Source: Thermoanaerobaculia bacterium (GTDB taxonomy: Bacteria > Acidobacteriota > Thermoanaerobaculia > Multivoradales > Multivoraceae). Taken from it: a stretch of 64,000 nt of DNA. Numbering within the stretch: position 1 is the first letter of the stretch; each line of letters opens with the position of its first letter. Made by a program: the position numbers and the translations under genes. Location of the stretch: contig OY761158.1 in the NCBI GenBank assembly GCA_963664405.1, forward strand, positions 1,088,001 through 1,152,000. The letters run 5' to 3'. The notes under the pieces were generated by a model. That model was not told the origin of the DNA, did no database searches, and saw nothing but the letters and a program-made list of their open reading frames with translations. Positions 2,555 to 60,582 of this stretch are shown here, piece by piece.

Positions 2555-2947
2555 ATGATCATCCTTCGCGCCATCCGAGAGGTGCTCGGCCGTATCCTCA
2601 TCTTCTTCGACTGGATCACTCGCCCTGAGAAGGCTTCACGCTCAGCCACTGAGCTCGCGCAGCTGTCGAAGGAGACGAGCAACCTGTCGATCTACCAGTT
2701 CTACGCCTGCCCTTTCTGCTTGAAGACGCGACGTGCACTTCATCGCCTCAACCTTCCGATCGAGCTGCGTGACGCGCAGAAGGAAGGCGAGCACCGCACG
2801 GCTCTGCTCGAGGGCGGGGGTCGGGTGAAGGTGCCATGCCTTCGTATCGACGGTGCCGACGGTGAGGGCAGTCAGCAGTGGCTCTACCAATCGAAGGAGA
2901 TCATCTCGTATCTGGAACAGCGCTTCGGAGCACCTGCCCAGGTCTAG
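2555..2947 (+). CDS. Glutaredoxin-family protein
   Basis: CPFC motif and GGRVKVPCLRI. ATG at 2555 chosen as the start. Confidence 0.8.
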   Translation: MIILRAIREVLGRILIFFDWITRPEKASRSATELAQLSKETSNLSIYQFYACPFCLKTRRALHRLNLPIELRDAQKEGEHRTALLEGGGRVKVPCLRIDGADGEGSQQWLYQSKEIISYLEQRFGAPAQV

Positions 2948-3576
2948 TAGGACTCAATCGAGTTGACGAAATCGAAACCCTCTTTCGCCATGACCAGGCG
3001 ATGGCGTTCACCGGTAGCATCGGCATCGGACTGCTCATAACCGGCATCACCCGTCCACATACACACGCGCACGCCATCGTCGCGTACCCCGACGTGCGTA
3101 TGGTAGAACTTGGGCTTCCGCGACCGGAACTGCTCGAGCACGGCTGCGGTCGGGCTATAGCGTGAAAGGTGGTAGAGAGTCACCCATGTCGGTGGCGCGA
3201 GGTCGATCTCCCCCGCCCGGTGGCTATCGAGAGCCTTCGCCGGGGCTATCCACGAATGGTCGTCGATCTCGCCACCATCGATTTCGACCGCGTGCTCGCT
3301 TGCCTCTGCCGCGAAGAACCAGGTCGAAAACCGCTTGGGGGTCGATGTCGGTGGCTGCCAATGGGCGAACCAAACAAAGTCATCGGGGAGAGCTTGGATA
3401 CCGGCCTCCTCATGGGTCTCTCTGGCCGCAGCCGTTCGAGCCGCGGTCTCGAGGTCGCGGTCCTGGGGATAGTCTTCGCCGTCGATTCGCCCCCCGGGGA
3501 ACACCCACATACCGCCGAAATGGATTTTCGAAGTCTTGCGCAACATCAACACCTCAGGGCCCGAGACGGCGTCACG
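2944..3576 (-). pseudogene. NUDIX hydrolase, 3' part (interrupted by IS21-family element)
   Basis: WVFPGG..AARETHEEAGI Nudix box. Joins in frame to 6903-7012 once the IS and one TSD copy are removed. Confidence 0.9.
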
Positions 3577-3822
3577 TGTCAACGGCGCTTAAGAAGCGCG
3601 CGATCCCGGCTTTCTGACCGCGTTTCCTGCTGAGAGTCTCTTCAGCATCATCGTCGCGCGCGAGCGCGCGAGCAGCGTGGCAGGTGGGAGTATGGGGAGA
3701 CCGGCGGGGGCGACTCCAAGCAAGGTGACCGCCCACCGCCGGAAGGCCTGGGGTATGACGCCCCAGAAGAGGGAGTATTCCGCCTGCGGGTGGCGAAGTC
3801 CAGGCCGAAGGAGGCCTGGGCC

Positions 3823-4314
3823 GTGCGCCGCCGTCCCGATTGTCGCCGTTTCGTTTGCGATCGTTGCCGGCAAGCTGTCTACATTTGCTCTTGGTGCGAT
3901 CGCGGCCATCGTTATTGCACGCCGGAGTGCCGGGATGAGGCTCGGCGCCACAGCCTTCGCGGGGCCGGGCGTCGCTATCAGCAGACGCCGCGAGGGCGCC
4001 GCTTGCATGCTCGTCGTCAGCAGGCCTATCGAGATCGCAAGCAGCAAGGCTCAAAGAAAGTGACGCATCACAGTTGCCGCACCGGGGGCTGCCCTGCGAC
4101 GGTGGCGTCATGGCCCACCGCGCCGCTTCCGTTGTTTTTGCAAGGCTTGTCCGTTGGAGGTCGGAACGAGGAGCTTCTCTGCAGGCTGTGCCGCCATCCT
4201 TGCGAGCCGATTGTCCGCCACGACTTCTTGCGATCGCGCCGAGTACGCCCGGTGCGCAGGCGGGCGCGGGATGATCTCTCCCGAGCTCGCCGCCGAGATC
4301 CGCCGTCTCTATGA
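3823..4314 (+). CDS. IS21-associated Cys-rich, Arg-rich putative zinc-finger protein
   Basis: CDRC-x6-CSWCDRGHRYC-x3-C plus a C-terminal CRLC; AGGAGG before GTG 3823; clear homolog at 59866-60318. Confidence 0.75.
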   Translation: MRRRPDCRRFVCDRCRQAVYICSWCDRGHRYCTPECRDEARRHSLRGAGRRYQQTPRGRRLHARRQQAYRDRKQQGSKKVTHHSCRTGGCPATVASWPTAPLPLFLQGLSVGGRNEELLCRLCRHPCEPIVRHDFLRSRRVRPVRRRARDDLSRARRRDPPSL

Positions 4315-5770
4315 GTCGGAGGGCTGGCGGCGCAACACGATCGCCCGCCATCTGGGAATCCATCACTCGACGGTCACTCGAGTCCTTCGACGCGAAGGGC
4401 TGAGCCGGCCTCGATCGCCGCGACGAGCGTCCATGGTCGATCGCTTCGTCCCCTTCATCCAGGAAGTCTTTGAGCGCTACCCGGAGCTGCCGGCGAGCGT
4501 GCTCTACGAGATGGTCAAGAAGCGTGACTATCCCGGTGGGGAGGATCACTTCCGCCACTGCATTGCCGAGCTCGGCCTGCGCCCCCGCAAGGCGCCTGAG
4601 GCTTTCTTTGTGCTCCGTACGCTTGCCGGCGAACAGGCCCAGGTGGACTGGGCTCACTTCGGCACCCGAAAGGTCGATGGCGGAGAGCGCCGTCTCTACG
4701 CCTTCGTCATGGTGCTGAGCTACTCGCGAGCTCTCTTTCTGCACTTCTTCTACGACGCTCGTCTGCCGAGCTTCCTGACCGGGCATGTCCTCGCCTTCTC
4801 CTTCTTTGAGGGTCTGGCCAAGATCCACCTCTACGACAATCTGCGCAGCGCTGTGCTCGAGCGGCGCCGCAGCGCCATTCGCTTTCATCCACGGCTTCTC
4901 GAGCTCGCCGACTTCTACGGCTTTGATCCAAGACCCGTTGCTCCCAGACGAGGAAATGAAAAAGGTCGCGTCGAACGAGCCATTCGTTTTGTCAGAACTT
5001 CCTTCTTTCCGCTGCGTCGCACCTGGGACAGAGAAGCGCTGAACCGGGACGCTCTGGAGTGGTGTCGCGACCGAGCGATGAAGCGCCCGTGGCCCCAGGA
5101 CCGGCGTCGCACCGTCGAGCAGGCCTATCTCGAGGAGCGCTCTCATCTCGTGAGCCTTCCGGCGCAGCCTTTCCCCTGCCACGAATGGGTCGAGCGGATC
5201 ACGCGGCGCACTCCTTACCTGAGCTTCGATGCGAATCGCTACTCGATCCCGCATGATCGCATCGCCCGCTCGCTACAGATCGCCGCAGACCCGGAGCGTG
5301 TGCGCATCTTCGATCGCGAGCAGCTCATCGCCGAGCACACAAGGTCCTGGGACAAGGGCCAGATCATCGAAGACCCCCGTCACCTAGAAGAGCTGGAACG
5401 ACAGAAACGCGAGGCACGTACACAGCGCGGCCAGGACTACCTGCTGCGTACGGTGCCCCAGGCCGAAGAGCTCCTGCGGGAGCTGGCCCGACGGCAGAGA
5501 CGACTCTCGAGTGCCGTCGCCAGACTCCTCGAGCTCCTTGCCGAGAGTGGACCCAGGGAGCTTGCAGTGGCGATCGACGAGGCCCTCGAAAAAGGATCCC
5601 CGCATCCCGAAGCGGTGCGACTCATCCTCGATCGTCGGCGCCACGAGCGGGGACTCCTACCCGCGCTGCCTGTCCAGCTCCCCGACGATCCCAGGATCCG
5701 GGAGCTCACGGTCACTCCCCATGCACTGGCCGACTACGACAACCCCAACGACGAGGAGGACGACGAATGA
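4271..5770 (+). CDS. istA: IS21-family transposase
   Basis: N-terminal HTH, GEQAQVDW, MVLSYSR, YDN and EKGRVER DDE motifs, C-terminal NRYSIP. Confidence 0.95.
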   Translation: MISPELAAEIRRLYESEGWRRNTIARHLGIHHSTVTRVLRREGLSRPRSPRRASMVDRFVPFIQEVFERYPELPASVLYEMVKKRDYPGGEDHFRHCIAELGLRPRKAPEAFFVLRTLAGEQAQVDWAHFGTRKVDGGERRLYAFVMVLSYSRALFLHFFYDARLPSFLTGHVLAFSFFEGLAKIHLYDNLRSAVLERRRSAIRFHPRLLELADFYGFDPRPVAPRRGNEKGRVERAIRFVRTSFFPLRRTWDREALNRDALEWCRDRAMKRPWPQDRRRTVEQAYLEERSHLVSLPAQPFPCHEWVERITRRTPYLSFDANRYSIPHDRIARSLQIAADPERVRIFDREQLIAEHTRSWDKGQIIEDPRHLEELERQKREARTQRGQDYLLRTVPQAEELLRELARRQRRLSSAVARLLELLAESGPRELAVAIDEALEKGSPHPEAVRLILDRRRHERGLLPALPVQLPDDPRIRELTVTPHALADYDNPNDEEDDE

Positions 5771-6540
5771 ACAACACCGACCAAGAGCGTGCCACAGCCC
5801 TGAAACTCCATGGCCTCCTAGCCCACTGGGATGAGGTCGCCAACCAACCCTGGCTCCCCGACCTGCTCGACTGGGAAGAGCAGGAGCGAGCCCGTCGCGG
5901 ACTGGAGCGACGCCTGGGTCGGGCCCGGCTCGGCACCTTCAAGCCGCTGGCCGACTTCGACTGGAATTGGCCCAAGAAGATCGACCGCGAGCAGATCGAA
6001 GATCTCTTTCGGCTCGAGTGGCTCGCCCGAGGGCACAACGCTGTCTTGATAGGGCCAAACGGCATCGGCAAGACGCTCATTGCCAAGAATCTCGCCCATC
6101 AAGCCGTACTACGTGGAGCCACCGCCCGATTCCTCACCGCCTCGGAGCTGCTCAACACCCTCGCCGAACAAGACTCCTCGACCAGCCTTCAGCGCAAGCT
6201 CGCGCTCTTTGCGCGCCCATCCCTGCTCTGCATTGACGAGCTCGGATATCTGTCCTACGACACGCGCCACGCCGATCTACTTTTCGAGGTCGTTTCCCGC
6301 AGGTACGAAAATAAGTCCCTTCTCATCACCACAAACAAGTCCTTTGGAGAATGGGGAGAGGTCTTCCCCAACGCTACTACCGTCGTCACCATCGTCGATC
6401 GCCTCGTCCATCGCTGCGAGCTCGTCAACATCGAGGGCGATTCCTATCGGCTCAAGGAGTCCAAGGAGCACGCCAAGAAGCGCGCTTCGGCCCGCCGAAG
6501 CGGCACTCGCCCTCGACGGCGCAGTGCGAAGACCTCGTGA
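5767..6540 (+). CDS. istB: IS21-family helper AAA+ ATPase
   Basis: Walker A GPNGIGKT, Walker B LCIDELGY, ITTN and DRLVH; ATGA overlap with istA. Confidence 0.95.
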   Translation: MNNTDQERATALKLHGLLAHWDEVANQPWLPDLLDWEEQERARRGLERRLGRARLGTFKPLADFDWNWPKKIDREQIEDLFRLEWLARGHNAVLIGPNGIGKTLIAKNLAHQAVLRGATARFLTASELLNTLAEQDSSTSLQRKLALFARPSLLCIDELGYLSYDTRHADLLFEVVSRRYENKSLLITTNKSFGEWGEVFPNATTVVTIVDRLVHRCELVNIEGDSYRLKESKEHAKKRASARRSGTRPRRRSAKTS

Positions 6541-6890
6541 TCCGACAGGAGTATCGCGCCGAGCTCATCCGCCTCTACCTCGACGCTCCTAAAACCCCGC
6601 CTAGACCTCGGCGCCGAGACTGGGCCATCGCCGACAAGCTCTATCAAGCCAACGTCCCCCTCGAAGAGCTTGCCCATGCCATTCGACTCGCCACCTTGCG
6701 ACGGCGCCTCAGCACCGATCCGCTGCCGCAGATTCACTCACTTGCCTACTACCGCTCCGTACATCGAGCCCTGACCAACGACGAGCTCGACCCTCAATAC
6801 GTCCGCTACATCCTCCTTCGGCACCGGTCCCTTCTCGAGGAGGATGAAACCAAAAGCGCCACTACACAGCCGGAATCCCGCACTTTATGA
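6537..6890 (+). CDS. IS21-associated hypothetical protein (117 aa) downstream of istB
   Basis: GTG overlaps the istB stop (GTGA). Protein-like sequence IRQEYRAELIRLYLDAP..IHSLAYY; stop lies inside the right IR. Confidence 0.65.
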   Translation: MIRQEYRAELIRLYLDAPKTPPRPRRRDWAIADKLYQANVPLEELAHAIRLATLRRRLSTDPLPQIHSLAYYRSVHRALTNDELDPQYVRYILLRHRSLLEEDETKSATTQPESRTL

Positions 6891-6902
6891 CCGCCGATAA
6901 CA

Positions 6903-7012
6903 TCACGCAACAGCACCACGGTCGCGGCGGGTATCGGCGGCGCGGCCCCCTTTTCGGCGTTGAGATCGCCGTAGATATCGTTCCTATGTTGCTCAGTGCT
7001 CTTTTCACCCAT
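6903..7012 (-). pseudogene. NUDIX hydrolase, 5' part
   Basis: AAGGAGG RBS, ATG 7012, MGEKSTEQ..PIPAATVVLLRD continuing into AVSGPEVLMLRK across the IS. Confidence 0.9.
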
Positions 7013-59628: not shown

Positions 59629-59704
59629 AGCCACTCCTCCCTCAGGTTGATAGGTGTGCGAGTGTACCTCCCGTGTTGTCGGCTGACAAGAAACGCGGCA
59701 TCTA

Positions 59705-59734
59705 GGTAGTGGCTCCTCAAACTGAGCCACTACC
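59705..59734. repeat. 30-bp hairpin insertion within the mini-element left IR
   Basis: GGTAGTGGCTC-8 nt-GAGCCACTACC flanked by GGCATCTA and GGCATCTC. Confidence 0.85.
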
Positions 59735-59865
59735 GGCATCTCGGCTTTCTGATCGCGGTTTAGGGTCTCAATCCGGCCAGCATCATCGTCGCGCGCGAGA
59801 GCGCGGGAGGGAGGTCCTGAGAGGCATCACTACGCTCAGAGTAAGGGAGCAGTAAGCTCTCAGAG

Positions 59866-60318
59866 ATGGCTGATGTCGAGAGCCACCGCATGTTTCTCTG
59901 CGATCGCTGTCAGACGCGCGTCTCGATCTGCAGGAGCTGCGACCGGGGCCAGAGGTATTGCGGCCACGCGTGCGCCCGTCAGGCCCGCCGTGCGGCTCAT
60001 CGGCAGGCGAATCGTCGCTACCAGAGGACCGCACGCGGTCGAGAGTTTCATCGTACTCGCCAGGCCCGGTATCGAGCTGGCCGACCATCGGACAGCGGCC
60101 GCGTGACGGATCACAGTAGCTCCAGAGCACCTTCCGCTGCTCCAGTGTCGTCCGTACCAGAATCCGTCCACTTCTGTTGCGGTTGTGGCGCCGGTCCGGT
60201 GAAGTTCCTGAGACTCCAACCGCTTACGCGTCGCCGATCGCGCCGGAGACGAGTCTACCGACGTCCGGCAACGCCCCGAGAAACCGCGGCCTCGCAGCCA
60301 GAATCCCGCACTTTCTGA
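59866..60318 (+). CDS. Cys-rich, Arg-rich putative zinc-finger protein, homolog of 3823-4314
   Basis: CDRC-x6-CRSCDRGQRYC-x3-C, RRYQ.T.RGR..H, VT.H and a C-terminal CxxC; stop inside the right IR. Confidence 0.8.
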   Translation: MADVESHRMFLCDRCQTRVSICRSCDRGQRYCGHACARQARRAAHRQANRRYQRTARGREFHRTRQARYRAGRPSDSGRVTDHSSSRAPSAAPVSSVPESVHFCCGCGAGPVKFLRLQPLTRRRSRRRRVYRRPATPRETAASQPESRTF

Positions 60319-60330
60319 CCGCCGACAACA

Positions 60331-60582
60331 CGGGAACTTGAGCTGGGCGAAGTACTGTCTCAGCGTCTCGACAGCTCCTGATTCGCGCGCCTCGCGCTCG
60401 TAGGCCAGCCAGGCCTCGACATGAGGTTCGTCCGGAAGGGGCAGTTCGACCGGCGACGTGTCTTCGACCGACGGCGCCTCGCCATAGGCCAGTAGGACCT
60501 CCAGAAAACCGGGCGTCGCCCCCGACTCCTTCAGGACTTCCACCCGGAAGGCGCGCCGCTCGTTAGCGGGGTCCGACATCAC
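60331..60582 (-). pseudogene. Hypothetical protein truncated at the mini-element right end
   Basis: LPLPDEPHVEAW..QLKFP reads directly into the element's terminal TGT; no long continuation on the other side. Confidence 0.7.

Follow-up and report, generated by a model that had tools for sequence, protein, structure and literature searches.

An active IS21-family insertion sequence with four tightly packed genes: two small coupled genes flank istA and istB

The stretch of DNA analysed here (the window) comprises 64,000 nucleotides from a Thermoanaerobaculia bacterium of the phylum Acidobacteriota (GenBank assembly GCA_963664405.1, contig OY761158.1, positions 1,088,001 to 1,152,000 of the forward strand), and at positions 3577-6902 it carries an insertion sequence (IS) of the IS21 family. 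This element measures 3,326 bp, starts exactly with TGT at 3577 and ends exactly with ACA at 6902, and holds four tightly packed genes: the transposase gene istA and the helper gene istB, preceded by a small gene that we call orf1 and followed by another that we call orf4. In window coordinates, the features of the locus are as follows.

2944..3576, minus strand: 3' part of the interrupted host gene for a NUDIX hydrolase (PF00293, E 5.8e-13), whose frame is whole again without the element
3572..3576, unstranded: left copy of the target-site duplication, TCACG
3577..3614, plus strand: left terminal inverted repeat, imperfect, about 38 nt, beginning TGT; the same in all seven copies by direct alignment of the ends
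3823..4314, plus strand: orf1, a basic protein of zinc-finger type, 163 aa; GTG start with AGGAGG 9 nt upstream; 44-nt overlap with istA
4271..5770, plus strand: istA, IS21-family DDE transposase, 499 aa (NF033546, E 3.9e-69; Mu-transpos_C_2, E 1.5e-23), with an N-terminal helix-turn-helix (HTH)
5767..6540, plus strand: istB, AAA+ helper ATPase, 257 aa (PF01695, IstB_IS21, E 3.6e-60; NF038214, E 1.1e-64)
6537..6890, plus strand: orf4, a five-helix protein of 117 aa; GTG start shared with the istB stop (GTGA), final codons inside the right inverted repeat
6865..6902, minus strand: right terminal inverted repeat, terminating in ACA
6903..6907, unstranded: right copy of the target-site duplication, TCACG
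6908..7012, minus strand: 5' part of the interrupted NUDIX gene, with one candidate ATG at 7012

The terminal repeats, imperfect and about 38 nt long, are visible by direct alignment and go unlisted in an automatic repeat search. The bacterium's own genome (G000; 6.78 Mb) holds six copies at the full 3,326 bp, which stand 0-2 bases apart, one copy of 3,314 bp at 95% identity and one copy split by another IS. Five-bp duplications flank all seven uninterrupted copies, and all of them differ (TCACG, GGAGG, ACCTT, CTACC, AGCGT, CGTGT and TCCGG). Because each uninterrupted copy has a duplication of its own, the boundaries are fixed and activity has been recent; the element is an active IS21-family insertion sequence. 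Once it is excised together with one TCACG, the minus strand reads through as a single frame of 315 codons. An earlier sequence-only reading of the window had drawn the boundaries from the inverted repeats, the TCACG duplication and the in-frame restoration of the NUDIX gene, and all three are borne out by the aligned ends, the seven duplications out of seven and the 315-codon frame; its two extra open reading frames (ORFs) overlapping the core genes are likewise found where it had placed them, one running into istA and the other leading from the istB stop into the right repeat. A sigma-70 promoter scan, which is uninformative for this organism, gave no promoter within the element.

The core of the element is typical of its family. 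The istA product scores 233 bits against NF033546 (cut-off 160) and the istB product 218 bits against NF038214 (cut-off 200), and the istA stop and the istB ATG overlap as ATGA at 5767-5770. An IstA-type DDE transposase, a downstream IstB joined to it by a stop/start overlap, imperfect repeats with TG...CA ends and a duplication of 5 bp are thus all present, the target duplications of the IS21 family ranging from 4 to 8 bp. These features, along with the N-terminal HTH of IstA, are shared with IS21 and IS5376, whereas the length of 3.3 kb, the coupled gene before istA, the other one after istB and a right repeat that is partly coding set the window element apart from them. Judging from family membership, IstA as the DDE transposase and IstB as its AAA+ helper would together cut, join and capture the target. 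Canonical IS21 members are described with two genes in those portions of two publications that deal with them (PMC4608216, PMC12486865), and the four conserved genes found here inside the repeats depart from a content of istA and istB only; this four-gene layout is a variant organisation within the IS21 family and not grounds for exclusion from it.

Are the two extra ORFs genes at all? One might suppose that they are chance frames in DNA of 63% G+C, and that their conservation stems from IstA-binding sites in the ends of the element. Many overlapping spurious ORFs do occur in the region, the tails of the two proteins are constrained by the istA start (orf1) and by the right repeat (orf4), and annotation pipelines mostly skip orf1 in plasmids. 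Against this stand database relatives numbering 48 for orf1 and 98 for orf4 and reaching down to about 42% identity, with the invariant Cys residues of orf1 kept in relatives at 42-60% amino acid identity. The ratio of nonsynonymous to synonymous substitution rates (dN/dS), computed after Nei and Gojobori for pairs that are independent and more distant, is 0.31-0.38 for orf1 (four pairs) and 0.17-0.67 for orf4 (four pairs), i.e. well under 1 in all eight, compared with 0.10-0.19 for istA/istB (three and two pairs, respectively). Structure models are confident for orf4 (predicted local distance difference test, pLDDT, 87) and for residues 11-70 of orf1 (above 85), and the profile of orf4 matches 789 proteins. 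Alignments, profile search and dN/dS effectively refute the idea of chance frames, which we regard as hardly credible: orf1 and orf4 are real protein-coding genes under purifying selection. In the 95% copy, both frames remain open without insertions or deletions though each 100 bp of the element ends has up to 22-23 differences, as against 0-5 in the istAB core. This copy (G000:C1:2512933-2516246) is a mosaic when set against window 3577-6902, its istA/istB core being nearly identical and its orf1 and orf4 ends diverged, a pattern that suggests either that variants of the element have recombined or that the accessory genes evolve faster.

The predicted orf1 product is strongly basic (isoelectric point 11.4, with 42 Arg+Lys in 163 residues, or 26%) and contains 12 Cys. 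In an alignment of 22 sequences, C12, C15, C22, C25, C32, C36, C120, C123 and C127 are invariant and C7 is nearly so, and an Arg-rich stretch is conserved too. The model (pLDDT 74 overall) shows two beta hairpins with Cys knuckles, an Arg-rich helical hairpin predicted with confidence (34-74) and then a disordered linker that leads to a second small knuckle, CxxCxxxC. The protein has the conserved Cys/His ligand sets, spaced as knuckles, that are generic to zinc fingers, and the earlier label of a zinc-finger protein fits both the ten invariant or near-invariant Cys and the fold matches, which are weak and confined to small zinc fingers (YacG, FCS, MYND; best Foldseek E 2.6, best Z 3.2 in a wide structural search). 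Because the protein combines this charge and these invariant Cys with fold matches to zinc fingers only, nucleic-acid binding by orf1 is plausible. Pfam, NCBIfam, PHROG and PADLOC offer no family for orf1 or orf4 of the window, the ESM Atlas places both in unnamed 'hypothetical protein' clusters only, and profiles of the two alignments find nothing below E 0.06 among the sequences of solved structures. Longer forms of orf1 did not appear in the search, which is weak evidence.

The orf4 product is modelled as a small basic bundle of five helices, with a conserved core around R26, D28, H47, R50, L54-R56 and S68-Y71. Its profile, run over 1.84 billion proteins, matches 789 representatives at E<=1e-3 and 301 at E<=1e-10, most of them 100-150 aa long; Pfam gives no match at E<=1, and a tblastn search of PLSDB plasmids gave none either. 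The gene stops 12 nt from the end of the element, so that its last codons (...PESRTL; window 6865-6890) are encoded by the right inverted repeat; PESR plus two residues recur in relatives, and the conservation of this tail probably reflects in part the DNA site rather than the protein. As to fold, Foldseek against the PDB and against viral models yields nothing at E<=0.001 (E-values above 0.4). Residues 1-88 come closest to the AAA+ lid domain 3thg (Z 5.3, root-mean-square deviation (rmsd) 3.4, 75 aligned) and to DnaD-like domains (2zc2_B, Z 5.0, rmsd 3.1, 72/75; 2i5u, Z 4.2; the phage helicase loader G39P, 1no1, Z 4.2). For the DnaD-like/AAA+ lid fold as a whole this amounts to Z 5.0-5.3 and rmsd 3.1-4.4 over 72-82 residues, where helical bundles reach 6-13 by chance; DnaD-like and replisome-organiser proteins are also among the weak viral fold matches, below the noise mark. 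Relatives of orf4 give scattered sub-threshold hints, to be taken as leads only, to profiles of RepB-primase C-terminal, RecX and DnaD-like helicase-loader proteins. RepB_primase_C (PF22448) matches 27 of 138 relatives, all under the 26-bit cut-off and over about 27 residues (best E 5e-4), and does not match the window's own orf4. PF07261 (DnaB_2, DnaD-like) finds nothing at E<=0.01 in this genome with its roughly 30 orf4 copies, while control genomes were matched. Domains like orf4 also occur at the C-terminus of larger proteins, namely P0190 (878 aa, with three copies), P0279 (300 aa) and P0293 (259 aa); the N-terminus of P0279 resembles phage replication initiators (phrog_1408, E 5.6e-5), and its orf4-like C-terminus weakly matches a 'DnaD-like helicase loader' PHROG (E 0.032).

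What, then, is the relation of these two genes to istA and istB in other genomes? Hidden Markov models of both families were scanned over 43 loci. In a sample of 401 genomes the tallies are 31/401 for the scan for orf4 hits and 24/401 for the scan for orf1-like and fused forms, both including G000 and G049, a genome that is unpublished and enters into nothing else here, its locus L032 having been left out. Among 20 loci picked only by their orf4 match, istB lies directly upstream on the same strand in 19, with istA also present in 18, and the exception without istB is the end of a 1,871-bp contig; the arrangement of orf4 after istB holds even where IstA is about 24% identical to that of the window. 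(A contig scan with the orf4 alignment by way of a single peptide pattern returned only three loci.) Conversely, 16 loci picked only by IstA similarity (E<=1e-40) have orf1 in six cases, orf4 in two and neither in nine, the IstA of those nine being about 30-36% identical to the window's. Spacing is conserved as well: at L011, L066, L052, L051, L055 and L081 the istB stop and the orf4 start share 4 nt, at others the two lie within 8-16 nt, and the end of orf1 either falls 3-5 nt short of istA or reaches into it. The check that the earlier reading had proposed, a survey of the gene neighbourhood, thus finds both accessory ORFs conserved beside related istAB in other genomes, down to their tight spacing. 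A programmed frameshift between orf1 and istA was also considered and is unlikely, since the junction varies from a 4-nt gap to a 98-nt overlap and the relative frame is not conserved.

A quick maximum-likelihood tree of IstA has 32 rows. A minimum of 330 aligned IstA positions was required, which 33 loci reach, and one of these, L053, was set aside because it repeats the L052 element in truncated form; L044, L045, L048, L060, L061, L063, L074, L081, L012 and L013 are partial and were not used. In this tree, the elements with orf1 group into a single clade (17 rows) with full support in the approximate likelihood ratio test (SH-aLRT 100), and orf1 lies directly upstream of istA in 16 of them, the exception, L054, being a degraded copy. 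Eleven of the same 17 rows have orf4, which is found in two far-removed IS21 clades as well. In those distant clades, at least two elements with orf4, L046 and L049, carry a different Cys-rich basic ORF upstream of istA (in L046 with a weak match to the orf1 profile at 2.6e-6, in L049 recognised by eye). As to whether four-gene elements make up a clade, orf1 tracks one IstA clade, and orf4 is patchy and spans very distant ones; because the two distributions differ, the 'four-gene element' is one combination and not a fixed unit. L046 itself (1243-2890, in genome G279; IstA about 24% identical) lines up a Cys-rich orf1-like ORF of 167 aa, a 368-aa ORF without a Pfam match, istA, istB and orf4, and may be a five-gene element.

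The window element is accompanied in its own genome by a second one of the same orf1-istA-istB-orf4 layout, 3,390 bp long, present in 22 copies (e.g. G000:C1 593337-596726) and flanked by 5-bp duplications. Its IstA is 50% and its IstB 60% identical to the window's, its orf4 ends about 9 nt from the right end, and an identical IstA is encoded in a further genome from this phylum (G164, locus L052); other genomes hold 6-11 copies of orf4-bearing elements. The split copy of the window element (G000:C1:2641757-2650333) is interrupted by this second element, which sits in the leader 5' of orf1 with a duplication of CCAGG, a case of nested insertion.

Members of the orf1 clade also reside on plasmids of Mesorhizobium and Burkholderia. 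With IstA about 50% identical, these relatives resemble the window element in having the orf1 family directly upstream of istA, where it is missing from the PLSDB gene table, and a small gene that overlaps the istB stop by 4 nt; they differ in that this gene (L064 4757-4978; L065 4751-4966) encodes 72-74 aa and does not belong to the orf4 family (hhalign probability 0.3), its two copies being 43% identical to each other. The position after istB looks like a slot that small coupled genes can fill. By tblastn, the Burkholderia orf1 matched 36 plasmid records, mostly unannotated at this place or labelled 'hypothetical protein'.

Two of the longer orf4 relatives bring the two families together in one chain. 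P0235 (275 aa) and P0277 (249 aa) are natural fusions of an orf1-like N-terminal part with an orf4-like C-terminal part, hhalign pairing residues 16-106 with the orf1 alignment (probability 98.8) and residues 162-265 with the orf4 alignment (98.9). The two are 52% identical over their whole length, which means that the fused form has been kept while the sequence diverged considerably. A functional link between the orf1 and orf4 families is supported by these fusions. Regarding their genomic context, the metagenome scan gave no relative, the 401-genome sample no fused form, and the clusters occur only on contigs of 1,127 and 3,424 bp.

Relatives of orf1 are found in other settings, too. Eight further orf1-like matches from the 401-genome sample were inspected:

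L097 and L098: orf1-like gene adjoining istA
L099: orf1-like gene amid IstB fragments
L096: orf1-like gene beside an IS256-type transposase, which seems to have cut an element
L100: orf1-like gene, no context assigned
L093 (4006-5840), L094 and L095 (2551-4303), from two genomes: orf1-like gene followed after 240-320 nt by an ArdC-type anti-restriction gene, istAB being absent from the vicinity

The ArdC-type neighbours combine ArdcN with a zincin peptidase (E 1e-32 to 1e-39; ArdcN 1.9e-32 and 8.6e-35). A homologue of orf1 without companions is also present elsewhere in the window, in a single-copy miniature element of 657 bp with IS-like ends (59674-60330; 33-nt inverted arms at 59669-59701 and 60303-60335). 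It encodes 150 aa (59866-60318, plus strand; hhalign probability 99.6), and its frame runs into the right repeat; no clean 5-bp duplication was seen around the miniature element.

What might the two proteins do for the element? A transposase, an AAA+ ATPase and a small zinc-binding protein had reminded the sequence-only reading of the TnsB/TnsC/TniQ logic of Tn7-like target selection, and indeed, like TniQ/TnsD of Tn7-like and Tn5053-like transposons, orf1 is a small Cys-rich, putatively zinc-binding protein encoded with a DDE transposase and an AAA+ regulator, by genes that are tightly coupled. The niche would also be open, in that the body of a 2023 survey reports no target selector for IS21 (PMC10293859; its supplementary tables may bear on IS21-linked genes). 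Furthermore, TnsC (7mbw) is among the weak fold matches of orf4 (Z 4.8), but by way of its AAA+ lid-like helices. In a selector of this kind, IstB would be brought to particular sites by the orf1 protein, either by itself or jointly with orf4, as TnsC is by TniQ in Tn7-like elements. We reconstructed 29 insertion sites, seven of the window element and 22 of the second element, 25 of them with clean 5-bp duplications; they are scattered round the chromosome and show no consensus at any position in a 45-bp segment. These sites argue against a sequence-specific selector and are compatible with sensing of DNA structure. TniQ/TnsD families give no match at E<=1 to orf1, to orf4 or to 22 orf1 relatives, nor is there a fold likeness to TniQ; the gene order is another one, and orf1 occurs beside ardC without istAB. 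On these points the analogy lacks support, and a TniQ/TnsD-like role is very unlikely.

The proposal that orf1 and orf4 are integral components rather than passengers fares better. It is supported by conserved synteny and spacing, purifying selection, two multi-copy elements and the natural fusions, which together support the view that both are element genes kept by selection. Might they nonetheless be cargo unrelated to transposition, serving for instance counter-defence or establishment, that rides inside the repeats? The orf1 relatives upstream of ArdC-type genes in L093, L094 and L095 could be read in this way, as could the unrelated coupled 72-aa gene that fills the slot after istB in proteobacterial relatives and the dispensability of both genes in other IS21 clades. 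Cargo of this sort, however, does not readily account for a clade-wide vertical association with IstA, for translational coupling conserved to both core genes, for the retention of both genes in elements of only 3.3 kb at 7-22 copies, or for an orf4 coding sequence that enters the right repeat in both elements of this genome; no PADLOC model of defence or anti-defence was matched. We consider it distinctly unlikely. Perhaps, instead, orf4 is a DnaD-like or AAA+-lid-like adaptor that docks on IstB and changes its assembly on target DNA, with orf1 as the tether to DNA. Its place after istB, often with a 4-nt overlap and kept even where IstA is only about 24% identical, suits such a role, as do the kinship of IstB with the DnaC/DnaI helicase loaders, the best folds of orf4 (3thg; 2zc2_B, 2i5u and 1no1), the replication-initiator N-terminus of P0279, the 27 of 138 sub-threshold RepB_primase_C matches and the weak viral DnaD-like folds. 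With respect to DnaD-like or replisome-organiser domains and RepB' primase C-terminal domains, the likeness lies in a small helical bundle encoded next to a gene for a DnaC/DnaI-like ATPase; the difference is that every signal is sub-threshold (Z about 5 where chance gives 6-13 for helical bundles, Foldseek E >0.4) and that PF07261 recovers no orf4 copy at E<=0.01 in a genome with some 30 of them. A predicted complex of IstB and orf4 scored 0.00 against a mark of 0.32, which speaks neither for nor against an interaction. Docking on IstB is, on balance, an unlikely explanation.

The explanation that we favour, as a fairly probable one, is that orf1 and orf4 act as a pair that binds nucleic acid and serves the IstA/IstB machinery in an accessory or regulatory capacity. 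The operon orf1-istA-istB-orf4 would be translationally coupled through its stop/start overlaps, and the two small proteins would jointly bind the element ends, the transcript or the IstA/IstB-DNA complex, so as to tune expression or the assembly of the transpososome in the manner of the small upstream proteins of IS1 and IS3-type elements; they would not steer insertion to a specific sequence. InsA of IS1 and OrfA of the IS3 family are small basic proteins of a first frame that lies upstream of the transposase gene and overlaps it, and InsA has a zinc finger. A small basic upstream protein is what orf1 has in common with them, and this comparison is the basis of the regulatory role proposed here. 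The window element differs in showing no evident frameshift fusion with the transposase and in having a second partner gene at its other end, and the IS1 zinc-finger/HTH families of Pfam do not match orf1 or orf4 at E<=1.

Several observations weigh against such a pair, or against its being part of the core machinery. No known DNA-binding family matches orf1 or orf4, and all fold matches lie under the noise marks. Nine IS21 elements have neither gene, and neither is therefore needed for IS21-type transposition in general. Within the orf1 clade, orf4 is missing from L064, L065, L067, L068 and L070 (in L069 the contig ends too early). Orf1 relatives stand beside ardC without istAB at three of the eight extra loci, so that orf1 is not confined to IS21 and its role may be a broader one. 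The fusions make up only two of 150 listed representatives and might be deletion derivatives. As to a place in the core machinery, other IS21 clades do without both genes, loss or replacement of orf4 occurs, and orf1 exists outside IS21 as well; all three points speak against it. A bolder proposal makes the two proteins the so far unrecognised third and fourth subunits of an IS21-type machine, with orf4 as a DnaD-like or lid-like adaptor on IstB and orf1 as a zinc-finger arm that binds DNA or RNA; jointly, and in some lineages as one fused chain, they would add control or target sensing (e.g. of DNA structure, not sequence) that is missing from the two-protein model of IS21. We hold this to be rather unlikely. 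If it were true, the wider orf1 family, ardC-adjacent copies included, would mark a general module of mobile elements.

IS21 serves as a structural model for transposases that need a dedicated AAA+ ATPase, and it is treated as a two-protein system. The full-text literature that was searched yielded no description of extra conserved genes in IS21-family elements; ISfinder and TnPedia, which lay outside this search, may list such ORFs. A sub-lineage with one or two extra conserved, coupled genes is widespread, in the phylum of the window as well as on plasmids of Burkholderia, Paraburkholderia, Rhizobium, Mesorhizobium and Cupriavidus, and these genes mostly escape annotation; IS annotation tools and ISfinder-type entries should take in orf1 and orf4. 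Through the extra genes, such elements may control or extend what IstA and IstB do, and two unnamed families of small proteins gain a context in which their function can be tested.

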